NCBI GenBank assembly: GCA_963752935.1
Contig: CAVWAL010000016.1
Coordinates: 8,549 to 72,548 of the forward strand
Direction: 5' to 3'
From: an uncultured bacterium
GTDB lineage: Bacteria > Chloroflexota > Anaerolineae > Caldilineales > Caldilineaceae
Length of the DNA: 64,000 bases
A model generated the notes under the pieces. It saw nothing but the letters and a program-made list of their open reading frames with translations, had not been told where the DNA came from and did no database searches. This document shows, piece after piece, positions 6,573-60,108 of this stretch. Each line of letters opens with the position of its first letter. Within the stretch, counting starts at the first letter, position 1. The position numbers and the translations under genes were made by a program.

Positions 6573-9370
6573 GTCTTCGTTTTCGTTGACAAAATCCTGT
6601 GCTTGAAAACAGTCTCTACGCTACGTGCAACGGTTAGCCGCACGACGGCGACACGCCGCGCGGGGACGACCACACTGGTGGCGCCGTTCTGCACGGGCAG
6701 GTCGGCGCCGGCGTTGCCGAAGAGATCGCACGATTGGGCCGCGCTGATTTGCAGGAGACCCGATCGAATCTGGGCCGGTTGATCGGCGTCGCTGGTGTTG
6801 TGCAAGCGAACGATGATCCCCTCCCCATCCGCCGCGGGCTTGACGTGGACGGCGACGATGGGCGCTTCGGGCAGGCGCAGCAGGGAACCACGCGACGGCA
6901 GTTCGGGCACGGCGATGGTCGGTTCGCCCAATGGCTGCACCACGGGATCGCTGTTGATGGCTTCCCAGCCCCAACGGTGGGCCTGCGCTTCGTCGAAGCC
7001 GCCGGCGTGGGGATGCAAGCGATAGCGGGCCGAGACGCGGCCCGGCTGGTGGGCGCGGAAGTTGGTTTCCCAATAGTTGTTGGTCACCCAGCCCAGCAGC
7101 ATTGCCCGTTCCGGTGCGCACGTGCTCTGGAAGTCGCCGAAGTGGAAGTCGCCCAGTTGCACCAGCGGGTTTTCGGGGATCGCCACCGTCATGCCGCGCT
7201 CGTCGTTAGAGAAGTCGACCCAGCCTTGCACGGTAAAGTAATCGCGGCAGGAGCCGGGCAACTGGTCCTCATGCGGGATCACGGGCTGGCCGCCCACATC
7301 GAAGCGGGCGGTGGCGCCGGGCACGTCGAAGGGGAAGAGCAGGTAGGTGGCGTCGGGGTGGCTGGAAAGGCCCATATCCCACCAAGATTCGCATTCGATC
7401 CAGTCGGCGTAGTGGGGCAAGAAGAGACGCTGCGTTAATTCACCCTCTATGCCCGCTGCGGTCAGGGTCTGGCGCACGACGATACCCAGCGGCGTGTGGA
7501 AGACGCGGTGGCTGCGCACTTCCCCGGCCTGTCGCCGGTTGGGGCGCCAATCCGGCTTCCACCCTGAACCCAGTTCGGCGCGCCTGGCCGACCACGAACG
7601 CTCGAAGAGGTTATTGCGCGGCCACTCGGCATCGTGATCCGCTACTTCCTCATGCACGAAGCTGTGCAGCGGATAGTCCGCCGTGGCGTCGACCCACTCG
7701 CAGTCGAGTTGCTTGTCAAAGAGCGAAACCACGCCGCCCCACTCACGATCAAAGGTGACGCGGAAGCGGTGATTTTCCACGCTGGCCGCTTCGCTCTGCT
7801 CGATGAAGGTATCGGGTTCGCCGCTATAGCGGGCCTGGAAGCCGCCACCGCCGGCTGCACTGCGTTCGGCAGCGTGCACAGCGTTCAGTTCGCTCTTTTT
7901 GACGACGGTATAGCCGTAGCCCGGCACTTCGGTGGGCGGCAGGATGTAGCGATCCTCTGGGCGCTGTACGAGTCGGGCCAGATCTTCCACATGACGGTGC
8001 AGCGTGTGCCGTCGATCCAGGTGGTGGCGACCGGCGGTGCCGTCCTCCACCTGTCCGCGCACATTGACCGACGCCGGCGGCAGCGGACCGGCAAGCGTGC
8101 GCGCCCATGGCAACGGGTTGAAGATGAGCACGTCGGCGTCGTCGTTGCGGGTGACGTAGCGGGCCAGTTCGGCCACACCGTCGCGCTGGAGAAGCAAGCT
8201 GAGGCTGCGGGCGTTGTAGGCGTACTGCGCCTTGTGGAACCACTGCGCCCAGGTGTCCTCGCCGTCGGGGATGCGTACGGCGGTGTCCGCACCCCAGGTG
8301 TGTTCGTCCCACAGGTTGAGGGCATCCCAGGCAGCTTCGCGGTATTTGGCGAAACTTTCCTGCGCCCATTGCGGACGGGTGACGGCCTCGGCTGGGGTAT
8401 CGTCTGCCAGGGCGTGGACGGCGGCGTGGAGGGCATCTGCGCTGCGCAGGCGGGCGCGGCTCTGGCGGTTGAGCGATTGCTCGCGCGCGCTGCTGATGGC
8501 GCCAAAATTCCAGAAGTCGGTCCAGTCGCCGCGCCAGAGGGGCAGATGATCTTCGTAGCGGCGCAGCGCCTGCCACCAGGTACGCGGCGTGCAGAAGATG
8601 ATGCGCGGCGTCTTGCCGGCGGCATTCCAGGCCTCGATGAAGGGTGTAAAGTCGAAGGCGCTGCCGTTGTCACCGAAGGGGTGGTAGCTCTGCAACATCA
8701 GAATCGGCAGCGGGTAGTCGATGCTGTCCAGGTGTTGCTGCACCAGCGACCACCATTCTTCCAGGTGAGCAGGGTCCTCGCGCCCGATGCCGAAGGTCCA
8801 ACCCTTGTCATAGGTCCAACCGTTGTAGGTGAGCAGGGTGCGTCCGCTGGGAGCCTGCCAGCGGAAAGGCATGGGCCGCGGCTTGAGCGGGCCGCCAAAA
8901 TGGTTGTTGATGGCCATGCTAAAGCCTTCGATGCCGGCGTCGAGCAGGGCGTCGACCACGGGCCAGTTCTCGCCGTTGACATCGCAGTTCATGGCGTGGC
9001 GGATGTCGAAGCCAAAGCGGCGGCGCAGACGGTCTACATTTTGCAGGCTTTCCACGACCTGATCGGTGTCATAGAGCGGCGTAATGTTGACGAGCATGCC
9101 GGTCACTTCGATGCGCCCGGCGCGCTCCATGGCCACAAAGCGATCGATCTCGGCGGGCGTGGCCTGATCGAGCCAGCGCATCAACGGCATCGTCGTCTCC
9201 ACCGTCCAATGGAAGGCGCCGTCGCCGTCTTGATCGGCGTACTTCTCGGCCAGGGCCAGGGCTTCGTCGATGAAACGCACGTACATGTCCCACACCACCG
9301 GCTGATCGTGGGTGTAGCCGACGTCGGTGTGGCTGTGGTGGATGAAGTAAACGGTATCGATGGCAGGCAT
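6353..9370 (-). CDS. Glycoside hydrolase family 38 alpha-mannosidase
   Basis: Start at MPAIDTVYFIHHSHTDVGYTHDQ (GH38 N-terminal metal-binding HxHxD motif) with RBS GAGGTG upstream. Length is about 1000 aa. The last ~90 codons look non-native and overlap the next gene. Confidence 0.8.
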   Translation of the reverse strand: MPAIDTVYFIHHSHTDVGYTHDQPVVWDMYVRFIDEALALAEKYADQDGDGAFHWTVETTMPLMRWLDQATPAEIDRFVAMERAGRIEVTGMLVNITPLYDTDQVVESLQNVDRLRRRFGFDIRHAMNCDVNGENWPVVDALLDAGIEGFSMAINNHFGGPLKPRPMPFRWQAPSGRTLLTYNGWTYDKGWTFGIGREDPAHLEEWWSLVQQHLDSIDYPLPILMLQSYHPFGDNGSAFDFTPFIEAWNAAGKTPRIIFCTPRTWWQALRRYEDHLPLWRGDWTDFWNFGAISSAREQSLNRQSRARLRSADALHAAVHALADDTPAEAVTRPQWAQESFAKYREAAWDALNLWDEHTWGADTAVRIPDGEDTWAQWFHKAQYAYNARSLSLLLQRDGVAELARYVTRNDDADVLIFNPLPWARTLAGPLPPASVNVRGQVEDGTAGRHHLDRRHTLHRHVEDLARLVQRPEDRYILPPTEVPGYGYTVVKKSELNAVHAAERSAAGGGGFQARYSGEPDTFIEQSEAASVENHRFRVTFDREWGGVVSLFDKQLDCEWVDATADYPLHSFVHEEVADHDAEWPRNNLFERSWSARRAELGSGWKPDWRPNRRQAGEVRSHRVFHTPLGIVVRQTLTAAGIEGELTQRLFLPHYADWIECESWWDMGLSSHPDATYLLFPFDVPGATARFDVGGQPVIPHEDQLPGSCRDYFTVQGWVDFSNDERGMTVAIPENPLVQLGDFHFGDFQSTCAPERAMLLGWVTNNYWETNFRAHQPGRVSARYRLHPHAGGFDEAQAHRWGWEAINSDPVVQPLGEPTIAVPELPSRGSLLRLPEAPIVAVHVKPAADGEGIIVRLHNTSDADQPAQIRSGLLQISAAQSCDLFGNAGADLPVQNGATSVVVPARRVAVVRLTVARSVETVFKHRILSTKTKTCSSNPHRRQTDHSSPFAIRIPSCQTLLTGARPPRISCRLPARRPSLDSTIFTLASTSAPIKSTSVLDRWRSG

Positions 9371-14776: not shown

Positions 14777-15421
14777 TTACGAAAGATTGTTCTCCCCAAT
14801 CAACGTCTGCCAGTGGAACCAATCCTCTGCAGAATCCAAATCTAGCGCCAGTGCCGTTGACCTGATCTCGTGGATGGTGAGGTCGGCCGCTTTGGCGCGC
14901 TCGATGTGGCGCTGCCGGCTCTGTGGACCGTAGGCGAAGTCGATGGCATAGGCAGGGCGCAACAGGAGGGCGTTGGTACCGCCGTCACGGCTGCCGGCAA
15001 GCACGATGCAGCGATCATGGAGATTGCCGAGGTGGATCATTTCCCCAATGTCGTGGACGGTGAGTAGAGGCAGGTCGGCAGGCAGGATGAGGATGGCATC
15101 GGCGCCACGCTCTACGGCGACGGTGCGCGCCTGGTTCAGAGCGTTGTTGAGCGCAGCTTCGGGATCGGGAAGAGCAGGATCGGTAGGGATCGCAGCTTCG
15201 GGCAGCGTCGACGCCCCACCGGCTCGTGCCAGCGTCAAGACTTCTTCGTCGCGGCTGATGGCGATGATTCCCGCCAGATCCTCGACGGCGGCGACAGTCT
15301 TCAATGTCTGCAACAACAATCGCCGCGCCAACTCTCTCCTCTCCTGCGCGGACAGCAACGAGGCCAACCGGCTTTTGCCCAATGAAAGGGGTTTAACGGG
15401 CACGATCAGCCAGAGTTGCAT
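14777..15421 (-). CDS. cofC: 2-phospho-L-lactate / phosphoenolpyruvate guanylyltransferase (CofC/FbiD)
   Basis: N-terminal LIVPVKPLSLGKSRL, ILPADLPLL and SRDGGTNALL motifs. Its ATG overlaps the cofD stop (TAATG). Confidence 0.85.
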   Translation of the reverse strand: MQLWLIVPVKPLSLGKSRLASLLSAQERRELARRLLLQTLKTVAAVEDLAGIIAISRDEEVLTLARAGGASTLPEAAIPTDPALPDPEAALNNALNQARTVAVERGADAILILPADLPLLTVHDIGEMIHLGNLHDRCIVLAGSRDGGTNALLLRPAYAIDFAYGPQSRQRHIERAKAADLTIHEIRSTALALDLDSAEDWFHWQTLIGENNLS

Positions 15422-16542: not shown

Positions 16543-17187
16543 TTAGCGCCAGATGACCCGTTGGCTCAGATCAACTCGGTCTTTTTCTTTGGTTTCGGCA
16601 GGGTAGCCGAGTGTGATCAACGCCTGCGGCTGCCATGCTGACGGCAAGTCGAGGGCGTTGCGCACCAGATCGGGGACAAAAAGTGGCGCACACATCCAGC
16701 AGGCACCCAGGCCGGCATGGTGCGCAGCCAGGAGCAGATTCTGGCAGGCCAACGCGGTGCTTTGCACGGCCATCAACCATTCGGCCTCGGCGCGCTGGGC
16801 GTCGGGGTAGACGTCCATATCGTCCATCGACACCGAGGCAATGATCAACGCTGCCGCACCGGTGAGGCGGGCGTGGCTGATGGCGATTCGTTTTTCAACG
16901 AAGGCAGGATCGGCGCCGTCCTTACCTAAATCACGACGCCATTGATCGCTCATGCGCGCGCTCAACCGCTGTTTTGTCTCTGCCTCGCCGACCACACAGA
17001 AGCGCCACGGTTGGCGGTTGTGCGCCGACGGCGCCCACGTCGCCGCCGTGAGGATCTGCTCGATCACCTCTCGCGCCACAGGGCGATCCTCATAGCGGCG
17101 GATCGAGCGCCGTCCCTGGATCAGATGCCAGAAGGCGTCGTCCGCCAGATCGATTGTAGCCTCTTCGAGCGGTGGTCTCCTGTCCAT
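16543..17187 (-). CDS. Nitroreductase-family flavoprotein (stand-alone FbiB C-terminal-domain-like)
   Basis: [12 protein letters not shown]...[12 protein letters not shown] nitroreductase signature. The start at MDRRPP (17187) lies 6 nt downstream of a TGCTATAAT box. It is adjacent to cofD and cofC. Confidence 0.8.
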
Positions 17188-17193
17188 GTGTGG

Positions 17194-17202
17194 ATTATAG
17201 CA
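17194..17202 (-). promoter_or_regulatory. Extended -10 TGCTATAAT, implying a leaderless transcript
   Basis: The reverse complement of 17194-17202 is TGCTATAAT. The ATG at 17187 begins 7 nt after the hexamer. Confidence 0.5.
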
Positions 17203-18756: not shown

Positions 18757-19547
18757 TCGTGCGCAAGATGGGGAATGGACGGCTGCTCTGCATCCACCAG
18801 ACCACGCATGCGCTGATGGCGGCGCAGTTTTGCCGTTTCTGGGGCAACGACGACTTCACCACACCTCGGCCTTACGCGCCGGTGATGATGGCGATCGCCC
18901 AACACGACAACGGCTGGGCCGAATGGGAAATGGCCCCACTCCTCTGCGACGACGGCTTCCCGATGGACTTTATGACCTTCACCGATCAGGCGGCCAAGAC
19001 GCGGCTGTGGCAGCGCGGCATCGAGCGGGCATGGGGACAGCATCCCTACGCTGCGCTGATTATCGCCCGTCATGCGGCTATTCTTTATGAACAGTTTCAA
19101 GCGCGCGACGCCTATGATTCGGCCAACAACGCCGAGGTCAATCGCTTCCTGGCCGACCAACGCCAGTTGCTCGAACGTGCGCGGCAGTTGCTGGCCGACG
19201 TTCCTGAGTTCGTGATGGCGATGCAGCCGGAGGTGATCGAAGCCAACGCCCGGCTACTCCAATTCGGCGATCATGCCAGCCTCCAGGTCAGCGTGCCCTG
19301 GGCCGAAGAGGCGACGCTCTCGCACTGCCCGTTGGATTACAGCGGCGTCGAGGTCGAGATCCGCATGCGCTATACCGATGAGCAGATCAGCTTCGATCCC
19401 TGGCCCTTCGGCGTCGATGAATTCGACGTCGCCCTCGAGGGCTACCTCATCGAACAAGATCACTTCGCCGACGAACGCGCCTATCATCGAGCGCTGGCAG
19501 AGGCCCAGTTTTATCGAAAGACATGGACAGTAGTGCACTGTGCATAG
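18753..19547 (+). CDS. Hypothetical protein (possibly DUF3891-like)
   Basis: 264 aa clean ORF, translationally coupled to the upstream small ORF. The family assignment is from memory only. Confidence 0.5.
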   Translation: MIVRKMGNGRLLCIHQTTHALMAAQFCRFWGNDDFTTPRPYAPVMMAIAQHDNGWAEWEMAPLLCDDGFPMDFMTFTDQAAKTRLWQRGIERAWGQHPYAALIIARHAAILYEQFQARDAYDSANNAEVNRFLADQRQLLERARQLLADVPEFVMAMQPEVIEANARLLQFGDHASLQVSVPWAEEATLSHCPLDYSGVEVEIRMRYTDEQISFDPWPFGVDEFDVALEGYLIEQDHFADERAYHRALAEAQFYRKTWTVVHCA

Positions 19548-26774: not shown

Positions 26775-28430
26775 TCATCCGCCGTCTTCCGAGACAACAG
26801 CGGCTTCCTCGTCTGCAGGTTTGTCTGCCGGTTCCTCTTCGGGGCGCAACCGGTTGGATGCCCAACTGTCATAGCGTTGATGGATCGCGGTATAGTTCGG
26901 CGGCAGTTCAAAGTAAGGCGCTTCGAGCGGCGTCAACCCTTCAACGTCCGCCTTAAACTGGAAATAGTTCCACACGATCCGGCTGATCTCGTTCATGGTG
27001 CTGTTGCTCGTATCCCAGTCCATCCAGCCCTCGCGCCAGAGATAGACGCTGATCACATAGGGGCCCGCCGGTCCCCACACCAGGGCCAGGTCGCTGTGCG
27101 CCTCGTTAACGAAGCCGTGTTTGTGGACGATCCATGCCGTCTTGGGGCGAGGGAGACCGCCCCAGATCAGCTCCTGGAACTCGTCGTGGCTCATATAAAA
27201 CAGGATGTCATGACACTCGCGCGGCGTAAAGGCGTCGCCAAAGGTAGACAGCAGCCGCCCCTCGCCCTGCCAGCAGCGATAGATTTCGCCCAACAGTCGC
27301 CCCATATCCACCGGGGTAGACTGAAGATGGGGATCGGGATCCGTGTTCCAGTCAGTACGCCGGTTGGCCGCCGTGGAAATAGGGGCGATGTTGCTCTTGT
27401 CCTCGTAGCCGGTCTGGATGAACGAATTGTCGAAGCCCAGCGCCTGCATCAGTTCGGTGACATGCCGGCCACCGGCGTAAATGTCGGTATTGCCGTTCCA
27501 CCTCAGCACTTCATTGGCCGCCGCATTGCTGCTTTCACCCAGCGCATAGTCGATCCACTGGCCCAGATACGGTTCAGGCGGTTCCTCCAGTTGGCGATAG
27601 GCTTCGGTGACAATTGCCACCTTCATCGTGGACATACCAGAAAAGGCCACATCCACATCCACCATTGCCTCTTCACCGCTGGCCAGATCTTGCACATAGA
27701 TCGCAGCAAAGCCGGGGAAATCTGACGTAAAGCTGTTCAAGACTCGGCTCAGCGCGTCCATAGACAGCGGAGGTGGTTCCGTTTCGGCCAGGACGAGATG
27801 AGCGGCGGCGTGATCGGGATCGGTCAAGGTATCGATGATCGACTGGACACTTTCCTCGACTAGCAAGGTCTGGCCGGGCGTCCCCAACGTCCAGCGCCAG
27901 TCCTCTTGCACGCTGCCGGTGAAACCGGTGGGCAGCATCTCATCGCCGCCGCTATCGGTCCACCCCCACTGCGGCGGAACGGCGCGGGCCGTCTGCGGCT
28001 CACGGTTGTGCTCGACAGCCACGTTGGCCAACCAATCGTGCAGTTTGTCGTGGTTGAGGGTGAAACGGAGCGAAACCTGGCGGCGGCGCTGCGGCAGTCC
28101 TAAGAGGTGACGCACCGAAATGTCGATGAAGTCGGTGCCTTCCAGATAGCCGGACGCCTCCATCAACATGATCTCGGCGTCGACGTGGAAGTCCACGTCT
28201 TCAGGGTCGAGGACAAGCCGCTCCTCACCAAAGTAGACTGCCACCGGATCACGGAATCGACTGCGGATCGCCTCCACAATCTCTGCCGGATCTTTGTAAT
28301 GGCTCATCTCCTCACCCGCCAGATAGACACCCGGCGGGATCGGTCCTGCCGCTGCCTTAAAACGCGTATACAGCGGGAAGAGCGCCAGGATGAGGATTAG
28401 GAAGAAAACAAAGCGTAAAAATCGACCCAT
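26775..28430 (-). CDS. Membrane-anchored serine hydrolase with a class A beta-lactamase/PBP-like fold
   Basis: N-terminal TM helix. SGMSTMK (SxxK), ESSN (SxN) and KHG (KTG-like) motifs occur in order. The C-tail is acidic. Confidence 0.65.
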   Translation of the reverse strand: MGRFLRFVFFLILILALFPLYTRFKAAAGPIPPGVYLAGEEMSHYKDPAEIVEAIRSRFRDPVAVYFGEERLVLDPEDVDFHVDAEIMLMEASGYLEGTDFIDISVRHLLGLPQRRRQVSLRFTLNHDKLHDWLANVAVEHNREPQTARAVPPQWGWTDSGGDEMLPTGFTGSVQEDWRWTLGTPGQTLLVEESVQSIIDTLTDPDHAAAHLVLAETEPPPLSMDALSRVLNSFTSDFPGFAAIYVQDLASGEEAMVDVDVAFSGMSTMKVAIVTEAYRQLEEPPEPYLGQWIDYALGESSNAAANEVLRWNGNTDIYAGGRHVTELMQALGFDNSFIQTGYEDKSNIAPISTAANRRTDWNTDPDPHLQSTPVDMGRLLGEIYRCWQGEGRLLSTFGDAFTPRECHDILFYMSHDEFQELIWGGLPRPKTAWIVHKHGFVNEAHSDLALVWGPAGPYVISVYLWREGWMDWDTSNSTMNEISRIVWNYFQFKADVEGLTPLEAPYFELPPNYTAIHQRYDSWASNRLRPEEEPADKPADEEAAVVSEDGG

Positions 28431-28450
28431 AGGATTGGTTTACTTCAAGG

Positions 28451-30019
28451 CTACTCCCACTCAATCGTAGCGGGCGGTTTGCTGCTAATATCATATACCA
28501 CGCGGTTGACCCCGTCTACCTCGTTGACGATACGGTTACTCACCTTCGCCAGCAGATCGTAGGGCAGGCGCGCCCAATCCGCGGTCATGAAATCGTCGGT
28601 GGTGACGGCACGCAGGGCAATCGGATTCTCATAGGTGCGTCCGTCACCCATCACCCCCACACTGTGCACCGGCAGCAGCACGCAGAAGACCTGGCTGGTT
28701 TTGCGGTAGAGATCGGCGGCGCGCAACTCCTCCAGAAAGATGGTGTCGGCCTTGCGCAGCACTTCGAGCCGATCCCAGGTGACTTCGCCTAAGAGCCGGA
28801 TCGCCAGTCCTGGGCCGGGGAAAGGGTGCCGCCAGACGATCTCATCGGGTAGCCCCAACTCTGCGCCCAGGGTACGCACCTCGTCTTTGAAGAGCATACG
28901 CAGCGGTTCGATCAGGCGGAAGGTCATGTCCGCAGGCAGGCCGCCCACATTGTGATGGGTCTTGATCGTGCGAGCGTTGCGCGTCTCCTCATTGCTCGCC
29001 GATTCGATGACGTCGGGGTATAGCGTCCCCTGCGCCAGGAAGGCCGGGTGATCAATACCCCACTCCAGCGCCAAGCGTGCCGCCTCGGCCTCAAAGACGC
29101 GTACGAAGCGTGTACCGATCAATTTACGCTTCAGTTCAGGATCGGTGACACCAACCAGATCGCTGAGGAACTCCTCTTTGGCATCGACGGCGATGAGACG
29201 CATGCCCTGGTGCTGCTCGAAGGTTTCCACCACCTGTTCGGCCTCGCCCTGGCGCAGCAGCCCATGATCGACGAAGATGCAGGTAAGGTTGTCGCCGATA
29301 GCTCGATGGATGAGGGTGGCGGCGACGGCGCTGTCCACGCCGCCACTGAGGCCGCAGATCACGTGTCCATCCGGCCCCACGGTCTGGCGGATGCGGTCGA
29401 CGCTCTCCAGGATCACATTGCCTGCCGTCCAATCGCCGGTGCAGCCGCAGATGCCACGCACAAAGTTGTGCAGCAGTTGGTTACCGTGCGGTGTGTGCAC
29501 GACTTCGGGGTGGAATTGAATACCATAGCGGCGGCGGCCTTCATCGGCTACCGCGGCCAGGGGAGAATTGTCACTGCGGGCGATGGAGATGAAGCCCTCG
29601 GGCAGACGGTCCACGCGGTCGCCGTGGCTCATCCACACACGCTGAGCCGCGGGCAGGTTCACGAAGAGCGGCGACTCGGACAGCAGGCGGATCTCGGCGG
29701 CTCCGTACTCGCGTTCGCTGCTGGGCACGACGTGCCCACCGCCGTAATGAGCCAGCAGTTGCAGGCCGTAACAGATGCCCAGCACCGGCACGTCCCCCGC
29801 CAGGACAATTTCGGGCAGCGTCGGCGCGCCGGCGTCATAGACGCTGTTCGGCCCACCGGATAGGATGACACCGGCCAAATTCTCGATCTGCGGCAACCGC
29901 GCTGCCGCCCGATCCCACGAAATCAACTCGGCAAAGACATTCGCCTCGCGCACCCGGCGGCAGATCAATTGGCTGTATTGGCTGCCATAATCCAGCACGG
30001 CGATGGTTTGGTGTTGCAT
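28451..30019 (-). CDS. guaA: GMP synthase (glutamine-hydrolysing)
   Basis: GATase [11 protein letters not shown]-PPase SGGVDS, C-terminal ...[17 protein letters not shown] before ATG 30019. Confidence 0.95.
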
Positions 30020-30055
30020 GCAATCTCCTTGGTAGTGAAGGTATGTCAACAAAAC

Positions 30056-30670
30056 CTAGGCAGTTGTCGAAGAACCGCCATCCTCATTCGGATCGCGCAC
30101 CACGATCGCATCATTGTCCATGCTATCGACAATGGCGAGGGTGACGATGGGCACGTTGAGATGCGACAACTGGGCGCGGCCCGATTCAAACGATTTTTCG
30201 ACCAGGCAGCCGATTCCGCACAACGTGGCGCCGCAGTCGGCGATCAGTTGCGCCAGCGCGTGGATCGTTTTGCCCGTGGCCAAAAAGTCGTCGATAAGCA
30301 GCACGCGGTCGGCGGGGTGGAGATATTCGGGCGAGACCATCAACTGCACGATGCCGCCTTTGGTGTGGCTGGGCGCTTCAGATGCGTAGAAGCCTGCGGG
30401 CATGGTGATGGGCCGGTGTTTGCGTGCATAGACAACAGGTACACCCAATGCCATTGCCGTAGTAAGCGCCGGTGCGATGCCGCTGACTTCAGCGGTGATG
30501 ATCTTGGTGATCCCATCGACGCCGGCAGCAGCAAATCGGCGGGCAAATTCCTGCCCCATCTCAACCGTGAGAACCGGATCGAGCTGATGGTTGATGAATC
30601 CGTCAACCTTGAGGATACCGCGCCCCAGGTTGCGTCCTTCACTACGAATACGCTCTACAAGTGCTTTCAC
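30056..30670 (-). CDS. xpt: Xanthine phosphoribosyltransferase
   Basis: GTG start after GGGGAGGA. It carries ILKVDGFINHQ and the PRPP loop VLLIDDFLATGKT. At 204 aa it matches Xpt size. Confidence 0.85.
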   Translation of the reverse strand: MKALVERIRSEGRNLGRGILKVDGFINHQLDPVLTVEMGQEFARRFAAAGVDGITKIITAEVSGIAPALTTAMALGVPVVYARKHRPITMPAGFYASEAPSHTKGGIVQLMVSPEYLHPADRVLLIDDFLATGKTIHALAQLIADCGATLCGIGCLVEKSFESGRAQLSHLNVPIVTLAIVDSMDNDAIVVRDPNEDGGSSTTA

Positions 30671-30779
30671 CCAATTCCTCCCCTGGCGGTTTCGCGGACA
30701 AGATCGTTGCGTCGTGTCTTCAGCCTCAGGTGAAACACGCTGTCCGTATCGTCGCATCTGAGGCGTTTCGTTGCGTCCC

Positions 30780-30808
30780 ATTGTACTGCCCGCCGCGGCA
30801 CAGGACAA
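30780..30808 (-). promoter_or_regulatory. Candidate promoter of xpt-guaA
   Basis: On the minus strand: TTGTCC (30808-30803), a 17-nt spacer, then TACAAT (30785-30780). This leaves a leader of about 100 nt. Confidence 0.5.
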
Positions 30809-30823
30809 AGATTCGGGGAATAC

Positions 30824-30861
30824 AAAAAGCGCAACGATCAGCGCTGATCGTTGCGCTTTTT
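30824..30861. terminator. Bidirectional rho-independent terminator
   Basis: AGCGCAACGATCAGC / GCTGATCGTTGCGCT is a perfect palindrome flanked by A5 and T5. It ends the SPFH operon. Confidence 0.85.
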
Positions 30862-30879
30862 GGCTTGAGAGAGGGAAGG

Positions 30880-31947
30880 TTAGCCCGCCAGGAACTGATC
30901 GATGACGCCCTTGCTAATGCGATATTGGCTGCCGATCTTGCGCGCCGAGATCTGTCCTTCGTCGATCAGGGCCTGGATATCGGCGGGGGCGACCTTCAGA
31001 TAGGCGGCGGCTTCATCCAACGTCATGACGTCGGGCACGGCGGCTGCGCCGGCGCCGGCAGCGGGCGTTTGCCCTTGCTGCGGCTGCTGTTGCTGACCGC
31101 TGTTGAAGGCATTGGCGATCATACCGGCCATACCCGCACCCATACCGATCCCCGCGCCCAAACCCAACCCTTCGGAACTGCCACCGCCGGGCTGCTGTGC
31201 GGCATCGCCCATGGCGCGTGCGGCTTTGAACTGGAGATAGGCGTTCATATCGCCGATAGCACCCATTGCGGCGCGTTCGTCGATGGCCTTGGCGGTCTCT
31301 TCGGTGGGGCTGATGGAGACGATACGAAATTGCTTGAGCGAGATCCCCATCGCCAGGAAGTCATCCTGGAGCGTGGCGCGCATGGCGGCGCCGAGTTCAT
31401 CGAACATCTTGGGCAGATCGAGGATGCTGGTCATGTTTTCTGCGATCACGTCGGTCATCTTGCTGATGATGACGCTGCGCAGAAAGTCGCTGATCTGCGC
31501 TGTGCGGTACATGCCCTGCGTACCCACAAACTGATCGACAAAGCGTTTGGGGTCGGCAACCTGGATGGAGTACTGTCCGAAGCCGCGCAGCCGAACCAGG
31601 CCCAGATCGGTGTCGCGCAGGCTGATCGGCTCGGGGGTACCCCATTTTTGGTCGGTGAACTCACGCATGTTGACGAAATAGACTTCGGCGGTGAATACGT
31701 TATCGCCACCGGTGCCGAAGCGCATGAGCGTGGAAAGGACAGGCAGGTTGGCGGTGGAGATGGTGTGTCGTCCCGGCTCGAAGAGATCGAGCGAGCGTCC
31801 ATCGCGGTAGAAAACGGCGCGCTGGCTTTCGCGTACGATCACTTGACTGCCAAACCTGAAATCGCCGGAATCAAACTCCGGTTTGCGTACAACCAACTCA
31901 TCTGGCCCTTGATTGGGCGCTTCGACAACGTCAATGATCCTTGGCAT
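30880..31947 (-). CDS. SPFH/band-7 (YdjI / COG4260-type) protein fused to a C-terminal excisionase-family HTH
   Basis: The N-terminus IIDVVEAPNQGPDELVVRKP...VIVRESQRAVFYRDG...NLPVLSTL is typical of YdjI-like SPFH proteins. A Gly/Ala/Gln linker follows. The C-terminus MTLDEAAAYLKVAPADIQALIDEGQISARKIGSQYRISKGVIDQFL matches the HTH_17 pattern. Confidence 0.75.
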   Translation of the reverse strand: MPRIIDVVEAPNQGPDELVVRKPEFDSGDFRFGSQVIVRESQRAVFYRDGRSLDLFEPGRHTISTANLPVLSTLMRFGTGGDNVFTAEVYFVNMREFTDQKWGTPEPISLRDTDLGLVRLRGFGQYSIQVADPKRFVDQFVGTQGMYRTAQISDFLRSVIISKMTDVIAENMTSILDLPKMFDELGAAMRATLQDDFLAMGISLKQFRIVSISPTEETAKAIDERAAMGAIGDMNAYLQFKAARAMGDAAQQPGGGSSEGLGLGAGIGMGAGMAGMIANAFNSGQQQQPQQGQTPAAGAGAAAVPDVMTLDEAAAYLKVAPADIQALIDEGQISARKIGSQYRISKGVIDQFLAG

Positions 31948-31994
31948 GGTGAAATCTCCTTTGGGCTTGAAAAGCGCAGTTATCTGGTTACTGA

Positions 31995-32594
31995 CTATTT
32001 AGATGCTTGGGCGCCGTACTGGTCGGCCGCCTTGAGCCAGTCTTCACTGACGTTGGGGGCTTCACCTTCCAGTAACGCTGGATCCTCGACGGCACGGTGG
32101 CGCTGATCGAAGAGACGGTTCATTTCGATGAGCTTCTGGTTGAGCGTATCGATAGCCTCTTCGACACCACCCTCACCGATCGCCTTCTCCAGCCCGTCTA
32201 CGGCTTCGCTGATCTCGTAGGTGCGCGCGGCCAACGCCACGTCGAAGCGGTGGAGAGCGTCCAGTTGTTCTTCTTTGATGCGCACAGCATTGAAGAGACC
32301 GGCGTAGCCATAGCTGGCAGTAGTCACCCGATCGGCCAGCGTCTGCAATTTCTGCACAACCCCGTCCACATCATCGAGGTAGCGCAGACCACCGTTGCGC
32401 AGTAGGTTTTGCTGTAAAGAATAGATCCGCTGTTTTTCGGCGGTCAACCCTTCGGCAATCGTCTGGCGCAGGCGATAGTCCGCATCCCGGCGCAATTCTT
32501 TATCTACATAGCCGCGGATAATCGGCAGTCCTTTGAGCAGCCGTTCGATAGCGCCCATCTCATCTTTGGACCTGTCAACAAATGGATTGGACAT
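31995..32594 (-). CDS. Coiled-coil protein (hypothetical)
   Basis: RBS GAGGAG before ATG 32594. It is 199 aa, helix-rich, with no TM helix. I recognised no family. Confidence 0.6.
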   Translation of the reverse strand: MSNPFVDRSKDEMGAIERLLKGLPIIRGYVDKELRRDADYRLRQTIAEGLTAEKQRIYSLQQNLLRNGGLRYLDDVDGVVQKLQTLADRVTTASYGYAGLFNAVRIKEEQLDALHRFDVALAARTYEISEAVDGLEKAIGEGGVEEAIDTLNQKLIEMNRLFDQRHRAVEDPALLEGEAPNVSEDWLKAADQYGAQASK

Positions 32595-32653
32595 TGGTTC
32601 TCCTCGTGAATACGAAAAACGTGAAAGAATGGGGAATCGAGAGTCTGTATTTA

Positions 32654-33208
32654 TCAGGAACTTGTAGACGGCGCTGCCGTCGCTGCGGCCGCCCGCTTGG
32701 TCAAGAAGACTTCGCTGCCACACCAGGGACAAACGATCACACCTTTGCCGGCGAACTGCAATTCGCCGCCGCAGTTCGGGCACTTGCGGTTATCCGTCAG
32801 TTGCTGGCTTTCCACACTGTAGAGGACGCCTTTGTCCCAGTTGATGGCGCCGCTGAAAAGCTGCTTGCCCACTACGTTGCGGATCATCGCTTCGACCTGC
32901 TCACGCGGTTCTTCCAGTTCGACCACGATTTCCTGGATCGTCACCTGGCCTTGGGTAAGGACCATGTTGAGGATTGTTTTCTCTTTGGCAACCTGGGCAA
33001 ACTGGCCTTCCTCCTGCCGTCCTTTGCGGAAAAGGTAGAAGCCAATCGCTGCCAGTGGGGCGCACACGATCAACGCCAGAAAAACGCCCAGCACGATGCC
33101 GCCGGGGCTGTTGCCTTCCGCCGTGATAACTGTCAATGACCAGCCGATCAAAAGAACGACGGCGATGATCATCATGGCGATACCGATAATGCGTCCACCT
33201 CCGCGCAT
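32654..33208 (-). CDS. Membrane protein with two N-terminal TM helices and a C-terminal zinc ribbon
   Basis: IIGIAMMIIAVVLLIGW and GIVLGVFLALIVCAPLAAIGFYLF TM helices. The C-terminal ribbon is CPNCGGELQF...VCPWCGSEV. Confidence 0.65.
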   Translation of the reverse strand: MRGGGRIIGIAMMIIAVVLLIGWSLTVITAEGNSPGGIVLGVFLALIVCAPLAAIGFYLFRKGRQEEGQFAQVAKEKTILNMVLTQGQVTIQEIVVELEEPREQVEAMIRNVVGKQLFSGAINWDKGVLYSVESQQLTDNRKCPNCGGELQFAGKGVIVCPWCGSEVFLTKRAAAATAAPSTSS

Positions 33209-33293
33209 AAGTCTCTCCTAAAGGCTCAGAATGAATATTCACAAAAGCATTGAACGGCGTGATGATCGAGATAAAGCGGTTCTGCCCATCAAC

Positions 33294-35255
33294 TCATCCA
33301 AATCCACCACCGCCGCCACCGCCACCGCCGCCGCCCCCACCACCGCCGCCAGAGAAGCCGCCGCCACCGCTCCAGCCGCCACCGCTCGACGATGAACTGG
33401 CCGGGCGACTGGTCATGGTGGCGCTGGCACTGTTGAGCATGGCGCCCAATCCGGCGCTCATCCCGGCCAGACTGCTGCCCATGCCGCGGCTGGCGCTGCT
33501 CAATCCACCGCCCAGGCTGCCGCCTTCACCGGCGCCGCCCATAAAGTCACCCATTCCACCGCCTGTCGACGTGGCGATAGGACCAGTGCCATAGTAGCGC
33601 TGTCGGTACGGGCCGTAGAGCGTGGGGTTAGGGATGTACCAGCCCGGCGCAGGGGCGTCGATGCGCTCAAACTTGGCCAGATATTGTTTCTCGACGCCAA
33701 AGGCAATGGCATAAGGAAGCCAGCGATCCCAGATCGTCTTCTGCTGTTCCAGATCGCTGTAGCGATCGATATCGGCCAGATACCGCTTAAAGGCTTCCCA
33801 CCGTGCTGCGGCCTCAGATCCTTGATCGGTCTTGCGCGGCATGTAGCGCGACAACAGAAGGAACCCCAACGCCGTAACGCCCAGGCCGAACCCTGGTAGA
33901 AAGGCAGCAGCCGTCAGTTCGCCAAACATCCCCAACAGGACAACACCCGCCACCACGGCCAGGATCAGAAGGATAACGCCCAGACACCCATACTGGTTGC
34001 GCACATTTTCGGGATTGCGAGCGAAGAACCCCTCTTCGGTGACCGCGTTGTACAGCGCCGTCTTGATCTTGGGGATCTTTTCGTAGAACTTGTTCTTGAG
34101 ATCCGACAGCTCCACCTCCTCTTTGCCGCCAAAGACGCTATCCAGGACCAACTTTTCATAGGCGCGCATGGGGACACCTTCATTTTCGCGCCGATAGATA
34201 AAGTCTGTTGACGTCGTCAAAAAGCCGCTCTTCTTCACCTCGGTGATGCTAATCGCCTTGCGCCGTGCCAGATCGACCAGCGTCGCCACAATGTCCTGCA
34301 TGTCGGCCTGTTCATCGAGGAGCGTCCCCACGAGGCCGGGCGGCAGATCATCAGGCGGCTCGGGCAAATAATCGGCCACAACGTCCACCGGTTTATCGCG
34401 ACCGAGTCGATCCCAAAGCAGATAGAGCAACGCCGGTCCACCCAGCAGGAAGAGAGCGCCCAGTGCGCCCAATCCAACCGTCGCAATCGGAGCCCACCTT
34501 TGCTGATACGCCTGCGCCGCTTCGCGTTCGGCCACTACTTGATCGGCCTGCACCTGCCAGGGTTGAGCCGAACCGGCCACCACCCCAGGGGCAAACTCGA
34601 CCCGCACTTCAAATTCTTCGCCCGCTTGCAAGCGTCGATCCAGATCAAACAGGACAGATCTCTGCCCTTCGAGCACTGTCGCTGTGGCGGAATCGCGCGC
34701 GTCACGCTCGTTGATATAGGCGGCCCATTCCTGGATCGGGGCCGGTGTTTCCACCGTCACGCGTCCTTCAAGCACGGGAAAGCTGCGATCCCCATAGATC
34801 GCCTTCCACCATACTTGATCCCCACCCTCGTAGAAACGTATGCCGCCGTGAACGCGGTAGCTGAGCGTATAGGTTTCCGTCTCGTTGCGCATGGGGGGGA
34901 AGTACCAGCGGATCACATAACTTGAGCCCTCTTCGTCGACCGTGAAGGTGTAGGGCGATCCGCTGCCGCTGACCAGCTCATAGCGGTTGCCGCTTGAGTC
35001 GGTTACGGCCCAGTCATCGATGTAATTATAAAAACGTATAGGGATATCTCGATAACCGAAGGTGAATTCACCATCGGTGAAACGAATCTGCTGGTGTTCA
35101 GCGACATCGAACGTACCGTCTGTGTTGACAAGGATGTCCACATCAAAGCGGTCCCACACCAGGGACTTTTCCTGAGCCTGGATCGCCAGTGGCATCAATA
35201 TCACACAGAGCAGTGCGATGAGCCAGGGCAATTGACGACGCACAAGCAACTTCAT
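33294..35255 (-). CDS. DUF2207-family membrane protein with a poly-Gly C-terminal tail
   Basis: Signal peptide [31 protein letters not shown]2207-like ectodomain, several TM helices, and the tail [33 protein letters not shown]. Confidence 0.75.
33297..33383 (-). repeat. Low-complexity (GGN)n tract encoding the poly-Gly tail
   Basis: 16 consecutive Gly codons at 33303-33350 plus flanking GGGG/GGG blocks. The + strand poly-Pro ORF 33250-33594 is its shadow. Confidence 0.9.
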
Positions 35256-35386
35256 GGTAGCCTCGTTTCAGGAATCATTCGATAGGGTAAGCCAATATAG
35301 CAAGAATAGTATGCTCTAGCCGCAAGCGATCCACCTGACATTCTATCAACAATTTACCTGACCTTCAACACAGCCGCAGCGTCAGG

Positions 35387-35541
35387 GTGTGTCCCATATT
35401 AATTATTAGGGGGTCCGTATCTTCCGGGAAGCCACGACGGATGGACACGGAGGTCCATCCCTACGTGTAGGGACCGGCCTCCGTGCCGGTCCGTTCTGCG
35501 TAGCTGCCCTGAAGATCAGAACCGAAATACTTGGGACGCAC
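35387..35541 (-). mobile_element. MITE-like element, one-unit copy (inverted relative to the 59.7 kb copy)
   Basis: It has the same arms and the same double-hairpin core as 59654-60108. The termini are GTGTGTCCCA...TGGGACGCAC. It sits between the DUF2207 operon and rsfS. Confidence 0.6.
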
Positions 35542-35578
35542 GTCCTCAGCGCAAATTCATTGAGTCGGAGCCGTCTTT

Positions 35579-36007
35579 GTGCTAAAATGCGTAGTGTCCT
35601 GTGTTACCTATCAGAATTTTTCGATTCACTACAGTCAGCCCAAGGAGGCATGTCTGGACAGCAATGAACTCGCTCGACGAATCGTAGAGATTGTCGAGGA
35701 TAAACAATCGTCGGATATTTTGCTGCTCAACGTGAGTGAGCAGACCACCATCGCCACCTTTTTTGTAATCGCTACGGTGGACAACGAGCGGCAAGCCAAT
35801 GCCATTCGCGATGAATTGTGGGAACAACTTCAAGTAAAAGAAAAAATCCGCCCCCTCAACAGCAGCGCGCCGGTTGGCAACAGTGGCGGTTGGATCTTAC
35901 TTGATTACGGCGATGTCATCCTGCACTTGTTTACTGAAGAGGCCCGACTTTACTACAACCTTGACGAACTCTGGCAAGATGCAAATGTTGTTCTAAGAAT
36001 GTTGTAG
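35579..36007 (+). CDS. rsfS: Ribosome silencing factor RsfS (iojap-like)
   Basis: ILLLNVSEQTTIATFFVIATVDNERQANAIRDEL and GGWILLDYGDVILHLF motifs. These are maximal ORF coordinates. The true start is probably near 35654 (CTG after AAGGAGG). Confidence 0.8.
   Translation: MLKCVVSCVTYQNFSIHYSQPKEACLDSNELARRIVEIVEDKQSSDILLLNVSEQTTIATFFVIATVDNERQANAIRDELWEQLQVKEKIRPLNSSAPVGNSGGWILLDYGDVILHLFTEEARLYYNLDELWQDANVVLRML
35580..35588 (+). promoter_or_regulatory. Extended -10-like element TGCTAAAAT upstream of rsfS
   Basis: TG-C-TAAAAT at 35580-35588, which lies inside the maximal rsfS ORF. Confidence 0.35.
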
Positions 36008-36036
36008 CGTCAGGATCTTCGGATTTGATTGGGATC

Positions 36037-36072
36037 AAAAAACGGCTTCCGCCGTAGCGAGAAGCCGTTTTT
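36037..36072. terminator. Bidirectional terminator between rsfS and ndk
   Basis: AAACGGCTTC pairs with GAAGCCGTTT, with an A-run before and a T-run after. Confidence 0.8.
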
Positions 36073-36106
36073 GCGCGTTTGCCTGGTTACGCCGTTTGAC
36101 TCGCGT

Positions 36107-36553
36107 CTATTCGAAAATCCACGGATCGGCCGCACGTCCCCAACTGACCAAATCCTCGCCAAACCAGAGGGCGATTTCACTGGCCGCTGTGTCCGGGCCG
36201 TCGCTGCCATGCACCAGGTTGCGCCCGATTTCCAGACCGTAATCTGCGCGGATCGTGCCGGGGTCGGCTTCTGCCGGCTTGGTGGCCCCCATCGTCTTGC
36301 GCACAGCCGCGATCGCATTGGTGCCTTCGAGCACCAGTGTCACCACGGGGCCGCTGATGATGTACTGGATCAGCCCGTTGAAGAAGGGTTTCCCCTCGTG
36401 CACAGCGTAGTGTTTGCGCGCCAGTTCTTCACTGACCTGCATGAACTTCATCCCCGCGATCTTTAGGCCGCGGCGTTCAAAGCGAGCCACAATCTCGCCG
36501 ACCAGGCCGCGCTGCACAGCATCCGGCTTGATGATGACAAAAGTGCGTTCCAT
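36107..36553 (-). CDS. ndk: Nucleoside-diphosphate kinase
   Basis: [21 protein letters not shown] and NLVHGSDG (active-site His). Confidence 0.95.
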
Positions 36554-36650
36554 TGTGTTGGTATCTCCTCAAATGCATGGGTCGTCTGTTGGTCGGCGCG
36601 CGGGCAAGCGGCGCGCCAGCCCATACCTTAGCGCATCCGTCAGGATTCGT

Positions 36651-37457
36651 CTAATTCGTCGCCGTCATTTCGCTAACTTCGGCAAAGAAGCGGGCTTCTC
36701 GCGAGGAGATCATCAGGGGGGCAGGCGCAGTATGCGCCCTATGTATGCCGTAGCGACTGGCAGCGTAAGCGCCGTCTGTGTCCATTGCAGTGAGTGGGGC
36801 CTGAGCCAACGCCCGATCGTCATCGTCGCCTACCTCGGCTGATACCAACCAGGCCAGGAGCAGGTTGGGGTCGCGGATGGCTAACGAATGCGCCAGATCG
36901 ATGGCGGCATCGATCTCACCGCTCTGCCAGAGGCATTCGAGATAGCCACTATAAATATCAGGGCGATCCGGATAGCTGGACATCAAGGTGGCGTAGATCT
37001 GCTGGGCCTCTCGCCAACGGCTCCCATGCCGATACACGGTGGCCAATGCGGCCTGGCTAAGCGTCAGGGCGGATGCCTGACCGAGGGTCGTCCGTACAAC
37101 GCCGGCGCGAACCTGCCGATTGTAGGGGGCTTGCTCAAAGGCCAGATGCCAGAAGCGCTGGGCCATCGATGGGTTGCCGATCTCTTCGGCTGCATTGGCA
37201 AGCACAGCCCAGGCCAACTCTTGCATAGGATCTGCTTGCAGCAATCGCCTCGCCCACAGTTCCCCATCGCGCCAACGCCGCGTCAACCACAGCGCGTGGA
37301 GCATCTGACGTTGGGCGGGCAAGTAGCGCGGCAGTTGGCGCAGGATCACAGGCAGCAAACGTAAGGCTGTACCAGGGCGGTTTTGTCCTAGCACTCGATC
37401 GATAACCTGCCGCCAACTACTCAGATCAGTGACATCGTCGTGCGGTCGATCTTGCAT
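36651..37457 (-). CDS. TPR-like repeat protein (hypothetical)
   Basis: 268 aa, helical-repeat-like sequence. It starts 7 nt after the mce stop. Confidence 0.5.
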   Translation of the reverse strand: MQDRPHDDVTDLSSWRQVIDRVLGQNRPGTALRLLPVILRQLPRYLPAQRQMLHALWLTRRWRDGELWARRLLQADPMQELAWAVLANAAEEIGNPSMAQRFWHLAFEQAPYNRQVRAGVVRTTLGQASALTLSQAALATVYRHGSRWREAQQIYATLMSSYPDRPDIYSGYLECLWQSGEIDAAIDLAHSLAIRDPNLLLAWLVSAEVGDDDDRALAQAPLTAMDTDGAYAASRYGIHRAHTAPAPLMISSREARFFAEVSEMTATN

Positions 37458-59653: not shown

Positions 59654-60108
59654 GTGCGTCCCAAGTGTTTCGGTTCTGATCTTCCGGGCAGCCTGCAGAA
59701 CGGACCGGCACGGAGGCCGGTCCCTACACGTAGGGATGGACCTCCGTGTCCATCCGTGATCGTCCACCAACCCGAAACGGACCGGCACGGAGGCCGGTCC
59801 CTACCGTAGGGATGGACCTCCGTGTCCATCCGTGATCGTCCACCGACCCAGAACGGACCGGCACGGAGGCCGGTCCCTACCGTAGGGATGGACCTCCGTG
59901 TCCATCCGTGATCGTCCACCAACCCGAAACGGACCGGCACGGAGGCCGGTCCCTACACGTAGGGATGGACCTCCGTGTCCATCCGTGATCGTCCACCAAC
60001 CCGAAACGGACCGGCACGGAGGCCGGTCCCTACCGTAGGGATGGACCTCCGTGTCCATCCGTCGTGGCTTCCCGGTAGACATGGACCACCCAATACTATG
60101 GGACACAC
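59654..60108 (+). mobile_element. MITE-like element carrying a tandem double-hairpin array
   Basis: Imperfect terminal inverted repeats GTGCGTCCCA / TGGGACACAC. The arms are shared with the 35387-35541 copy. It is bracketed by the 16-nt direct repeat CCGCGCCGGTAGGGTG (59641-59656 and 60109-60124). Confidence 0.6.
59701..60062. repeat. Tandem repeat, 5 units of 76/77 nt (last unit lacks the linker)
   Basis: Units start at 59701, 59778, 59854, 59930 and 60007. Each unit contains GGACCGGCACGGAGGCCGGTCC and GGATGGACCTCCGTGTCCATCC hairpins. Confidence 0.95.

Follow-up and report, generated by a model that had tools for sequence, protein, structure and literature searches.

What does an SPFH scaffold protein do with an excisionase-type helix-turn-helix (HTH) domain at its C-terminus, when it is encoded behind two membrane proteins and a small helical protein? 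This question is raised by a four-gene operon (g1 to g4) at positions 30880-35255, on the minus strand, of a 64-kb stretch of DNA from an uncultured Caldilineaceae bacterium, which we refer to as the window. With moderate confidence, we propose that the locus is a self-contained submembrane scaffold operon organised around a YdjI/SamI-family SPFH protein, and that it is a PspA-less relative of the pspA-ydjGHI envelope-stress module of Bacillus subtilis, which is also named pspA-samGHI. The four genes, in their order of transcription, and the parts of g4 that matter to the argument are the following, with the basis of each assignment in parentheses (AF2, AlphaFold2).

33294-35255, minus strand: g1, a DUF2207 membrane protein of 653 amino acids (Pfam, hydropathy)
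32654-33208, minus strand: g2, a membrane hairpin/winged-helix/zinc-ribbon protein of 184 amino acids (AF2 model, Foldseek, conservation)
31995-32594, minus strand: g3, a soluble protein of 199 amino acids modelled as a four-helix bundle (AF2 model, conservation)
30880-31947, minus strand: g4, a YdjI/SamI-type SPFH protein of 355 amino acids fused to HTH_17 (Pfam, NCBIfam)
31261-31863, minus strand: SPFH domain of g4 (Band_7_1), residues 29-229 (Pfam)
31099-31170, minus strand: glycine-zipper-like hydrophobic segment of g4, residues 260-283, GLGLGAGIGMGAGMAGMIANAF (conservation, hydropathy)
30886-31029, minus strand: C-terminal HTH_17/excisionase-type domain of g4, residues 307-354 (Pfam, NCBIfam, charge, phage alignment)

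The four genes form a real operon. Four co-directional open reading frames (ORFs) are present at these coordinates, each preceded by a Shine-Dalgarno-like sequence and separated by gaps of 85 nucleotides (nt) between g1 and g2, 59 nt between g2 and g3 and 47 nt between g3 and g4, just as an earlier note made from the sequence had described them. The note had also called the last gene a YdjI-type SPFH protein, and Band_7_1 (PF13421) indeed matches g4 with an E-value of 2.4e-60 and 204.2 bits against a gathering cut-off of 24. By hydropathy the protein has no N-terminal membrane anchor and no hydrophobic segment before residue 260; the segment at 260-283 is nearly invariant, reaches a maximal Kyte-Doolittle hydropathy of 1.38 and has equivalents in relatives of every tail type described below. 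A Gln/Pro/Ala linker after this segment leads to the C-terminal domain, for which an HTH_17/excisionase match had been predicted over the last ~50 residues, and both HTH_17 (PF12728; E = 1.3e-10, 41.8 bits against a cut-off of 27) and TIGR01764 ‘excise’ (E = 8e-10, 38.9 bits against a cut-off of 28.8) were found there. g4 fits the layout of YdjI (PMC8581546), with an anchorless SPFH domain, a Gly-rich segment, a linker and a C-terminal domain, here of 48 residues. A sequence search of the PDB found no relatives of g4 or of its HTH domain.

Conservation of the unit was followed in a scan of one genome per GTDB species, in which 446 genomes carry a close g4 relative; the best 80 of these 446 are all Caldilineales or Chloroflexota metagenome-assembled genomes. 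The order g1-g2-g3-g4, which had been expected to be conserved, is kept in all 73 of the 73 Caldilineales loci that carry the four genes, with median gaps of 109, 94 and 75 nt, so that gene order is conserved far beyond chance. The genes that flank the operon in the window recur in only 2 to 7 of 83 loci, and since the flanks vary while the order is constant, the four genes behave as an independent unit. The operon is found in essentially every sampled Caldilineales genome and its divergence matches that of the species. At least 120 database clusters share the Band_7_1 plus HTH_17 architecture, and those that are named are all Caldilineaceae or Chloroflexi.

Some variation on this plan was seen within Caldilineales (L numbers denote individual loci). 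A Uma2-family gene encoding a putative restriction-endonuclease-like protein of 293 amino acids lies between g2 and g3 in L001 (6403-7284), L042 and L043, widening that gap to ~1.1 kb. In L037, whose Caldilineaceae genome is complete, g4 is followed downstream by a tandem array of three ~2-kb units. Each unit opens with a duplicate of the 3' part of g4 that encodes the HTH (14949-15182, 17005-17199 and 18959-19153) and continues with an ORF of ~340 codons that has 42-nt repeats inside it; L039 (12563-13090), L018 and L030 also contain stray copies of this g4 end.

Outside Caldilineales, what is constant is the g3-SPFH pair and what varies is the tail. An exhaustive HMMER search gave 4424 g4 relatives, and tails were typed by Pfam on 109 full-length representatives of 50%-identity clusters. 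Among these 109 the tail is a zinc ribbon in ~33, SHOCT in 19, GYF_2 in 18 and HTH_17 in 4, in agreement with the statement of the earlier note that a zinc ribbon is the usual tail of the family, and all relatives inspected keep the Gly-rich hydrophobic segment and the linker. A metagenome scan seeded with diverse g3 sequences yielded 80 loci, which carry no taxon labels. A Band_7_1 gene lies directly downstream of g3 in 64 of the 67 loci having room for one, and the 45 full-length SPFH proteins linked to g3 divide into 15 with HTH_17, 15 with a double zinc ribbon and 15 with SHOCT, a SHOCT-like domain or GYF_2 (Pfam-confirmed). Further upstream, g2 is present in 17 of the 48 loci long enough to show it, and in a set of 25 loci g1 occurs in 12 and g2 likewise in 12; DUF2207 and g2 are found upstream with every tail class. 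Hence the g3 plus Band_7_1 pair is conserved well beyond Caldilineales, and the C-terminal domain of the SPFH protein is interchangeable between HTH_17, a double zinc ribbon, SHOCT and GYF_2. Individual loci illustrate the range: an HTH-type g4 with 47% identity is preceded by g2 and g3 homologs and no DUF2207 (L084), another is accompanied by g3 only (L088), a third is solitary (L086), and a relative without HTH (57% identity, L091) occurs with g2 and g3. It should also be mentioned that the GYF_2-type SPFH proteins of L145, L146 and L149-L151 end in a PPPLP motif, which could be a ligand of the GYF domain of a neighbouring subunit, hinting that the tails may link subunits.

What, then, is the HTH_17 tail for? 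The earlier note had taken it that a membrane scaffold is joined to a DNA-binding module; this stands as a domain label, but the slot proves interchangeable, and the domain is acidic and lacks the polar or basic residues that three phage excisionase-type proteins have in the recognition helix. Specifically, the net charge of the domain averages -1.4 in Caldilineales (range -3 to +1, n=81; about -1 in this g4) and -0.2 in other lineages (range -3 to +1, n=18), whereas three comparators from phage, all excisionase or regulator domains, have +4 to +5. The nearest phage matches, with 33-42% identity, are annotated as excisionases or transcriptional regulators. In an alignment with three phage proteins, the recognition helix of g4 opens with an invariant D where the phage excisionase-type proteins have T or S, and two residues before the conserved Gly the g4 relatives have D, E, N, S or T versus K or R in phage. 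DNA binding by the tail is therefore a possibility that we hold to be unlikely, and a role in protein contacts or oligomerisation is judged the likelier one because the tail is swapped in otherwise identical operons and because the HTH_17 domain is acidic.

The third gene is the fixed companion of the SPFH gene. Its start is an ATG set by 39 aligned homologs, and a longer ORF starting with GTG is an artefact. The protein had been read as a coiled coil, but the AF2 model is a four-helix bundle (predicted local distance difference test (pLDDT) 78, predicted template modelling score (pTM) 0.75). Two motifs are invariant: GLP-x4-Y-x2-K-x2-RR-x-AD, which lies close to the N-terminus, and A-x2-G-x-AGL, which lies in the loop joining helix 2 to helix 3 and is the most conserved feature of the protein. 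Nor is g3 wholly unassigned, as had been supposed: it matches the NCBIfam family LIMLP_15305 with an E-value of 4e-13 (residues 5-166 aligned to 7-170 of 175), although at 49.6 bits the match stays below the cut-off of 210, and by sequence g3 is best described as a distant relative of that family and not as a member. A literature search for LIMLP_15305 found only a table entry, which states no function. Foldseek against the PDB returned no significant fold (best E-value 0.2), its 50 listed matches include no chain of PspA, Vipp1 or LemA, and the best match in a profile search of the PDB was PhoU, with an E-value of 0.007. A diverged PspA/ESCRT-III or LemA protein was considered and rejected, the hhalign probability against PspA being 0.4% with no Pfam match at E <= 1.

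The two membrane proteins are also as the earlier note had outlined them. g1 matches DUF2207 (E = 1.8e-20) and DUF2207_C (E = 4e-51), and its hydropathy profile shows a signal-like N-terminus and three membrane helices, one at ~257-280 and two at ~424-470. The N-domain (~28-255) is placed outside, a cytoplasmic domain lies between the first helix and the pair, and the C-terminal region is cytoplasmic and ends in a long Gly/Ser tail (...GGGGGGFG). DUF2207 is usually paired with LemA; none of the four operon proteins has a Pfam match to LemA. The proposed layout of g2, with two transmembrane helices, a winged helix and a CPNC...CPWC ribbon, agrees with its AF2 model (pLDDT 69), in which hairpin helices at ~4-29 and 35-60 are followed by a long helix, a winged helix at ~88-131 and a zinc ribbon (C143-x2-C146...C160-x2-C163). 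The Foldseek matches to winged helices (PCI, TFIIE and archaeal regulators) have probabilities of 0.98-1.0 but weak E-values of 0.02-0.3, and the four ribbon cysteines are invariant in 36 homologs. No Pfam family matches g2 above cut-off, the only zinc-ribbon matches lying below it, and homologs outside Caldilineales were found in L084, L090, L091 and L116. Separately, many Caldilineaceae loci (L011, L017, L022, L023, L028-L030, L033, L036, L038-L040 and L059) have two or three DUF2207 paralogs in tandem ahead of g2, and these copies may have diversified the outside sensor domain.

By analogy with SamGHI we suggest a mechanism for the operon as a whole. DUF2207, with its outside domain, membrane helices and Gly-rich cytoplasmic tail, together with g2, with its hairpin, winged helix and zinc ribbon, would form a membrane-embedded sensor or receptor to which the soluble SPFH protein g4 would be recruited. 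The invariant glycine-zipper segment of g4 may aid membrane attachment or the assembly of oligomers, and the oligomeric scaffold so formed would restrain or organise the sensor. g3 would be the fixed soluble partner of g4, probably binding via its invariant loop, and HTH_17, on its flexible linker, would act as a tethered adaptor that most likely makes protein contacts or forms oligomers, as the other tails would, and is less likely to serve as a sequence-specific transcription factor. The co-encoding of g4 with membrane proteins is what is observed directly, while its recruitment to the membrane and its higher oligomers are what we propose.

Some of the other explanations turn on how the operon is controlled and on what surrounds it, for which the following two elements are needed.

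35334-35368, minus strand: operon promoter, with -35 TTGAAG (35368-35363), a 17-nt spacer and an extended -10 TG-n-TAGAAT (35345-35340)
30824-30861, common to both strands: bidirectional intrinsic terminator, a perfect palindrome of 38 nt between A5 and T5

The promoter is of the sigma-70 type by promoter scan, and GTCAGG directly follows each of its hexamers (35362-35357 and 35339-35334). The sequence shared upstream of g1 in Caldilineales is TTGAA(T/G)(T/G)GTCAG...TTGGTAGAATGTCAGG(C/T)ATGTCAGG, in which GTCAG(G) is placed after the -35, after the -10 and often again 9 bp on. The motif T[AG][GAC]AATGTCAG (an 11-mer class) occurs once in the 64-kb window. Caldilineales loci totalling 1.48 Mb contain it 53 times, in 50 cases <450 bp upstream of the DUF2207 gene of this operon; since the motif is concentrated there, the operon has a dedicated control region. 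Candidate binders are the HTH_17 domain of g4, the winged helix and zinc ribbon of g2, or a regulator encoded elsewhere. Two further observations concern this region. In L088, AT-rich palindromic repeats (GTAATTAGTAATTGGTAATTACCAATTACTAATTACC...) at 7286-7340 lie directly upstream of g3 in place of the GTCAGG repeats. In the loci with Val at the wing residue Tyr342 (L014, L024, L032, L061, L065, L070 and L078), the full TAGAATGTCAG promoter motif is never present, a pattern that could be co-variation or just shared ancestry.

The neighbours of the operon in the window are housekeeping genes (GMP synthase, a phosphoribosyltransferase, RsfS and Ndk) and a tetratricopeptide repeat (TPR) protein. 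Both boundary elements named in the earlier note are real: the palindrome at 30824-30861 is a terminator by scan on both strands, and the miniature inverted-repeat transposable element (MITE)-like sequence upstream is a 55-nt palindromic repeat (35439-35493, minus strand) with identical further copies at 59701-59755 and 59930-59984 (both plus strand), where 0 would be expected. This 55-nt element consists of two adjacent hairpins, resembling repetitive extragenic palindromic (REP) or MITE sequences, and the copy at 35439-35493 lies just upstream of the operon promoter. No Rfam family matched positions 28000-37000, and no RNA sequencing runs holding the locus sequence were found, the runs that hold it being DNA metagenomes in which its share is low.

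Several points weigh against the submembrane scaffold that we propose. The roles of g1, g2 and g3 are drawn from gene neighbourhood and analogy, and the comparison of g2 and DUF2207 with YdjG and YdjH is an analogy. PspA_IM30 has no match in the four proteins, in the window or within 10 kb at the 83 Caldilineales loci. The neighbour-joining tree of SPFH domains, in which the tail classes are mixed so that repeated swapping is implied, is without support values. HTH_17 scores above the curated cut-offs of a DNA-binding family, its wing keeps conserved basic residues (A-R/K-K-I-G...Y-R-I-S-K) and an invariant Arg, and the dedicated direct-repeat promoter, near which no other regulator is encoded, allows for a role in DNA binding. 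These last points are the substance of an alternative that we consider possible but not likely, namely that HTH_17 is a working DNA-binding domain and that g4 autoregulates the operon by membrane capture. Free g4 oligomers would, on this unlikely account, bind the promoter at its GTCAGG direct repeats, which overlap the -35, the -10 and +1, and the capture of g4 by g1/g2 under stress would free the promoter, or the reverse, a doubtful scheme that would resemble the PspA-PspF logic in one protein. Domains of the Xis and BldC type line up head to tail on direct repeats, and in the operon-specific promoter GTCAGG is directly repeated, with 2-3 copies and often a distance of 9 bp between the last two. 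R343 and G339 are conserved in the g4 relatives, as are the basic residues of the wing, the closest phage matches are annotated as excisionases or regulators as noted above, no other regulator is conserved nearby, and the behaviour of the Y342V loci is a weak lead in the same direction, although shared ancestry may be all that it reflects. Set against autoregulation are the acidic recognition helix, the net charge of the domain and the occupation of the same slot by SHOCT, GYF_2 or a zinc ribbon in sister lineages. Nor could the repeats be linked to the HTH_17 tail by co-occurrence, and that link was dropped: L118 and L120, whose operons are of the zinc-ribbon type, have three GTCAG copies ahead of g1, and no GTCAG repeats lie upstream of the HTH-type operons L084, L088, L086 and L135.

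Two further explanations assign the work elsewhere. It is improbable, in our judgement, that g3 is an effector doing the job of PspA, recruited by g4 to damaged membrane in order to stabilise or remodel it, with g4 acting mainly as recruiter. g3 is helical, has ~200 residues and always has its gene immediately before that of the SPFH protein, the Caldilineales operons have no PspA in their vicinity, and in B. subtilis PspA foci depend on the SPFH protein, with which PspA interacts (PMC8581546). However, the hhalign and Foldseek values given above and the lack of a PspA_IM30 or LemA match in Pfam speak against this role, the AF2 model is a compact bundle and not the long ESCRT-III hairpin, and in L090 a g3-like domain fused to DUF4178 coexists with a true PspA, so that a simple replacement, with g3 merely occupying the PspA slot, was dropped. 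That the operon is part of a mobile element or of an anti-phage defence island, its excisionase-type HTH reflecting recombination or phage sensing, is very improbable and largely refuted. HTH_17 is a family typical of excisionases, the MADS1 defence HTH of NCBIfam is hit weakly (E = 1e-5, under the cut-off), and stray copies of the g4 3' end are found in downstream tandem repeats of some genomes. The mobile-element or excisionase version was rejected on the housekeeping nature of the flanking genes, among which there is no integrase; an excisionase partners an integrase in a mobile element, and here the module is inherited along with the species, being near-universal in sampled Caldilineales and as diverged as they are. 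The defence version was rejected on PADLOC, which gave no significant match for the four proteins (none for g1, g3 and g4 and one marginal for g2, E = 0.003). We retain the submembrane scaffold, with the tail as an adaptor, as the preferred explanation.

The locus matters in several ways. The link between YdjI/SamI-type SPFH proteins and envelope-stress signalling is recent and confined to Bacillus, and the operon gives the SPFH protein a fixed and undescribed helical partner, g3, across many uncultured lineages. Two uncharacterised membrane proteins, one of them the widespread DUF2207, gain a testable setting, and the SPFH tail becomes a swappable module for which lineages with differing tails offer natural domain-swap material on tail docking. 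A bolder view, of which we are quite doubtful, is that the SPFH-HTH_17 protein g4 binds DNA and links the membrane sensor complex to the chromosome, as a switch of the GTCAGG promoter or as a membrane-nucleoid tether; apart from that, g3 and Band_7_1 with interchangeable tails would, in the same view, be a previously unrecognised and widespread core of submembrane SPFH systems in which PspA is optional. If g4 were to bind DNA, it would be the first example of an SPFH scaffold that carries its own DNA output, and if HTH_17 were to bind the repeat promoter of its own operon this would be a new wiring of membrane state to transcription.

How does the operon compare with systems that are known? 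g1 satisfies the description of the DUF2207 family, sharing with SMU.243 of Streptococcus mutans both Pfam domains and the topology of a large outside N-terminus, membrane helices and a Gly/Ser-rich inside C-terminus (PMC10457818), and it differs in being encoded within an SPFH operon; the S. mutans mutant is stress-sensitive, a stress-tolerance phenotype (PMC10457818). The tail of g4 belongs with phage Xis-type domains (TIGR01764) by family membership above cut-offs, but it is fused to SPFH, net negative and acidic in its recognition helix, and unlike an excisionase gene, g4 has no integrase or mobile element near it. The tail can also be set beside the magnetosome protein MamR, to which it has an NCBIfam match with an E-value of 1.7e-4: MamR too is HTH_17-like in a membrane-organelle context, and its model has a negative surface patch (PMC3905215). 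A search for literature mentioning both SPFH and HTH_17 found none, and the literature mentioning Band_7_1 yielded no description of this operon, in keeping with the proviso of the earlier note that the architecture not be an already characterised, named system. In the searched text of Ravi et al. 2024 (PMC11237479) there is no mention of DUF2207, and none of the 17 HTH mentions shown is a band-7 fusion; that search did not cover the g2 and g3 families.

The essential comparison is with pspA-ydjGHI. In B. subtilis, YdjG and YdjH recruit YdjI, which has a zinc finger, to the membrane, and PspA requires YdjI, with which it interacts, in order to form foci (PMC8581546); the same SPFH protein, as SamI, restrains SamGH signalling and so acts as a brake (bioRxiv 10.64898/2026.02.06.704340). 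As in that module, the last gene of the operon encodes a soluble Band_7_1 SPFH protein with a Gly-rich low-complexity segment and a small C-terminal domain, two membrane proteins precede it, one with a zinc ribbon, and a membrane partner combines an outside domain with a Gly-rich C-terminus. The earlier note had called the two loosely alike with different domain sets, and the resemblance has become firmer. The likeness gains from L090, where the closest zinc-ribbon relative of g4 (54% identity) adjoins PspA in an operon of a g2-like gene, a g3-like/DUF4178 gene, PspA_IM30 and SPFH, the only setting in which PspA was seen; the gene at 4180-5199, annotated as DUF4178 only and lying between the g2 homolog and PspA, encodes a g3-like N-terminal domain (13-170, E = 4e-30) followed by DUF4178 (196-325). 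The differences are that the Caldilineales operon is without PspA, has the extra fixed partner g3 and carries HTH_17 rather than a zinc ribbon on g4, and that its membrane partners are DUF2207 and the hairpin/winged-helix/zinc-ribbon g2, set apart by their descriptions from YdjH (a TPM domain and low-complexity sequence) and YdjG (two zinc ribbons, an NTF2-like domain and a transmembrane segment), as given in PMC11237479; none of the operon proteins has a TPM match. According to the same paper, DUF4178 is a partner in PspA operons and band-7 proteins with a C-terminal zinc ribbon or SHOCT, and DUF4178, recur as Psp partners building submembrane complexes (PMC11237479), and the variety of tails found here fits that picture of band-7, PspA, DUF4178 and SHOCT neighbourhoods. 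By analogy, the operon of the window would thus work like pspA-ydjGHI while standing outside that module, with no PspA and with different membrane partners.

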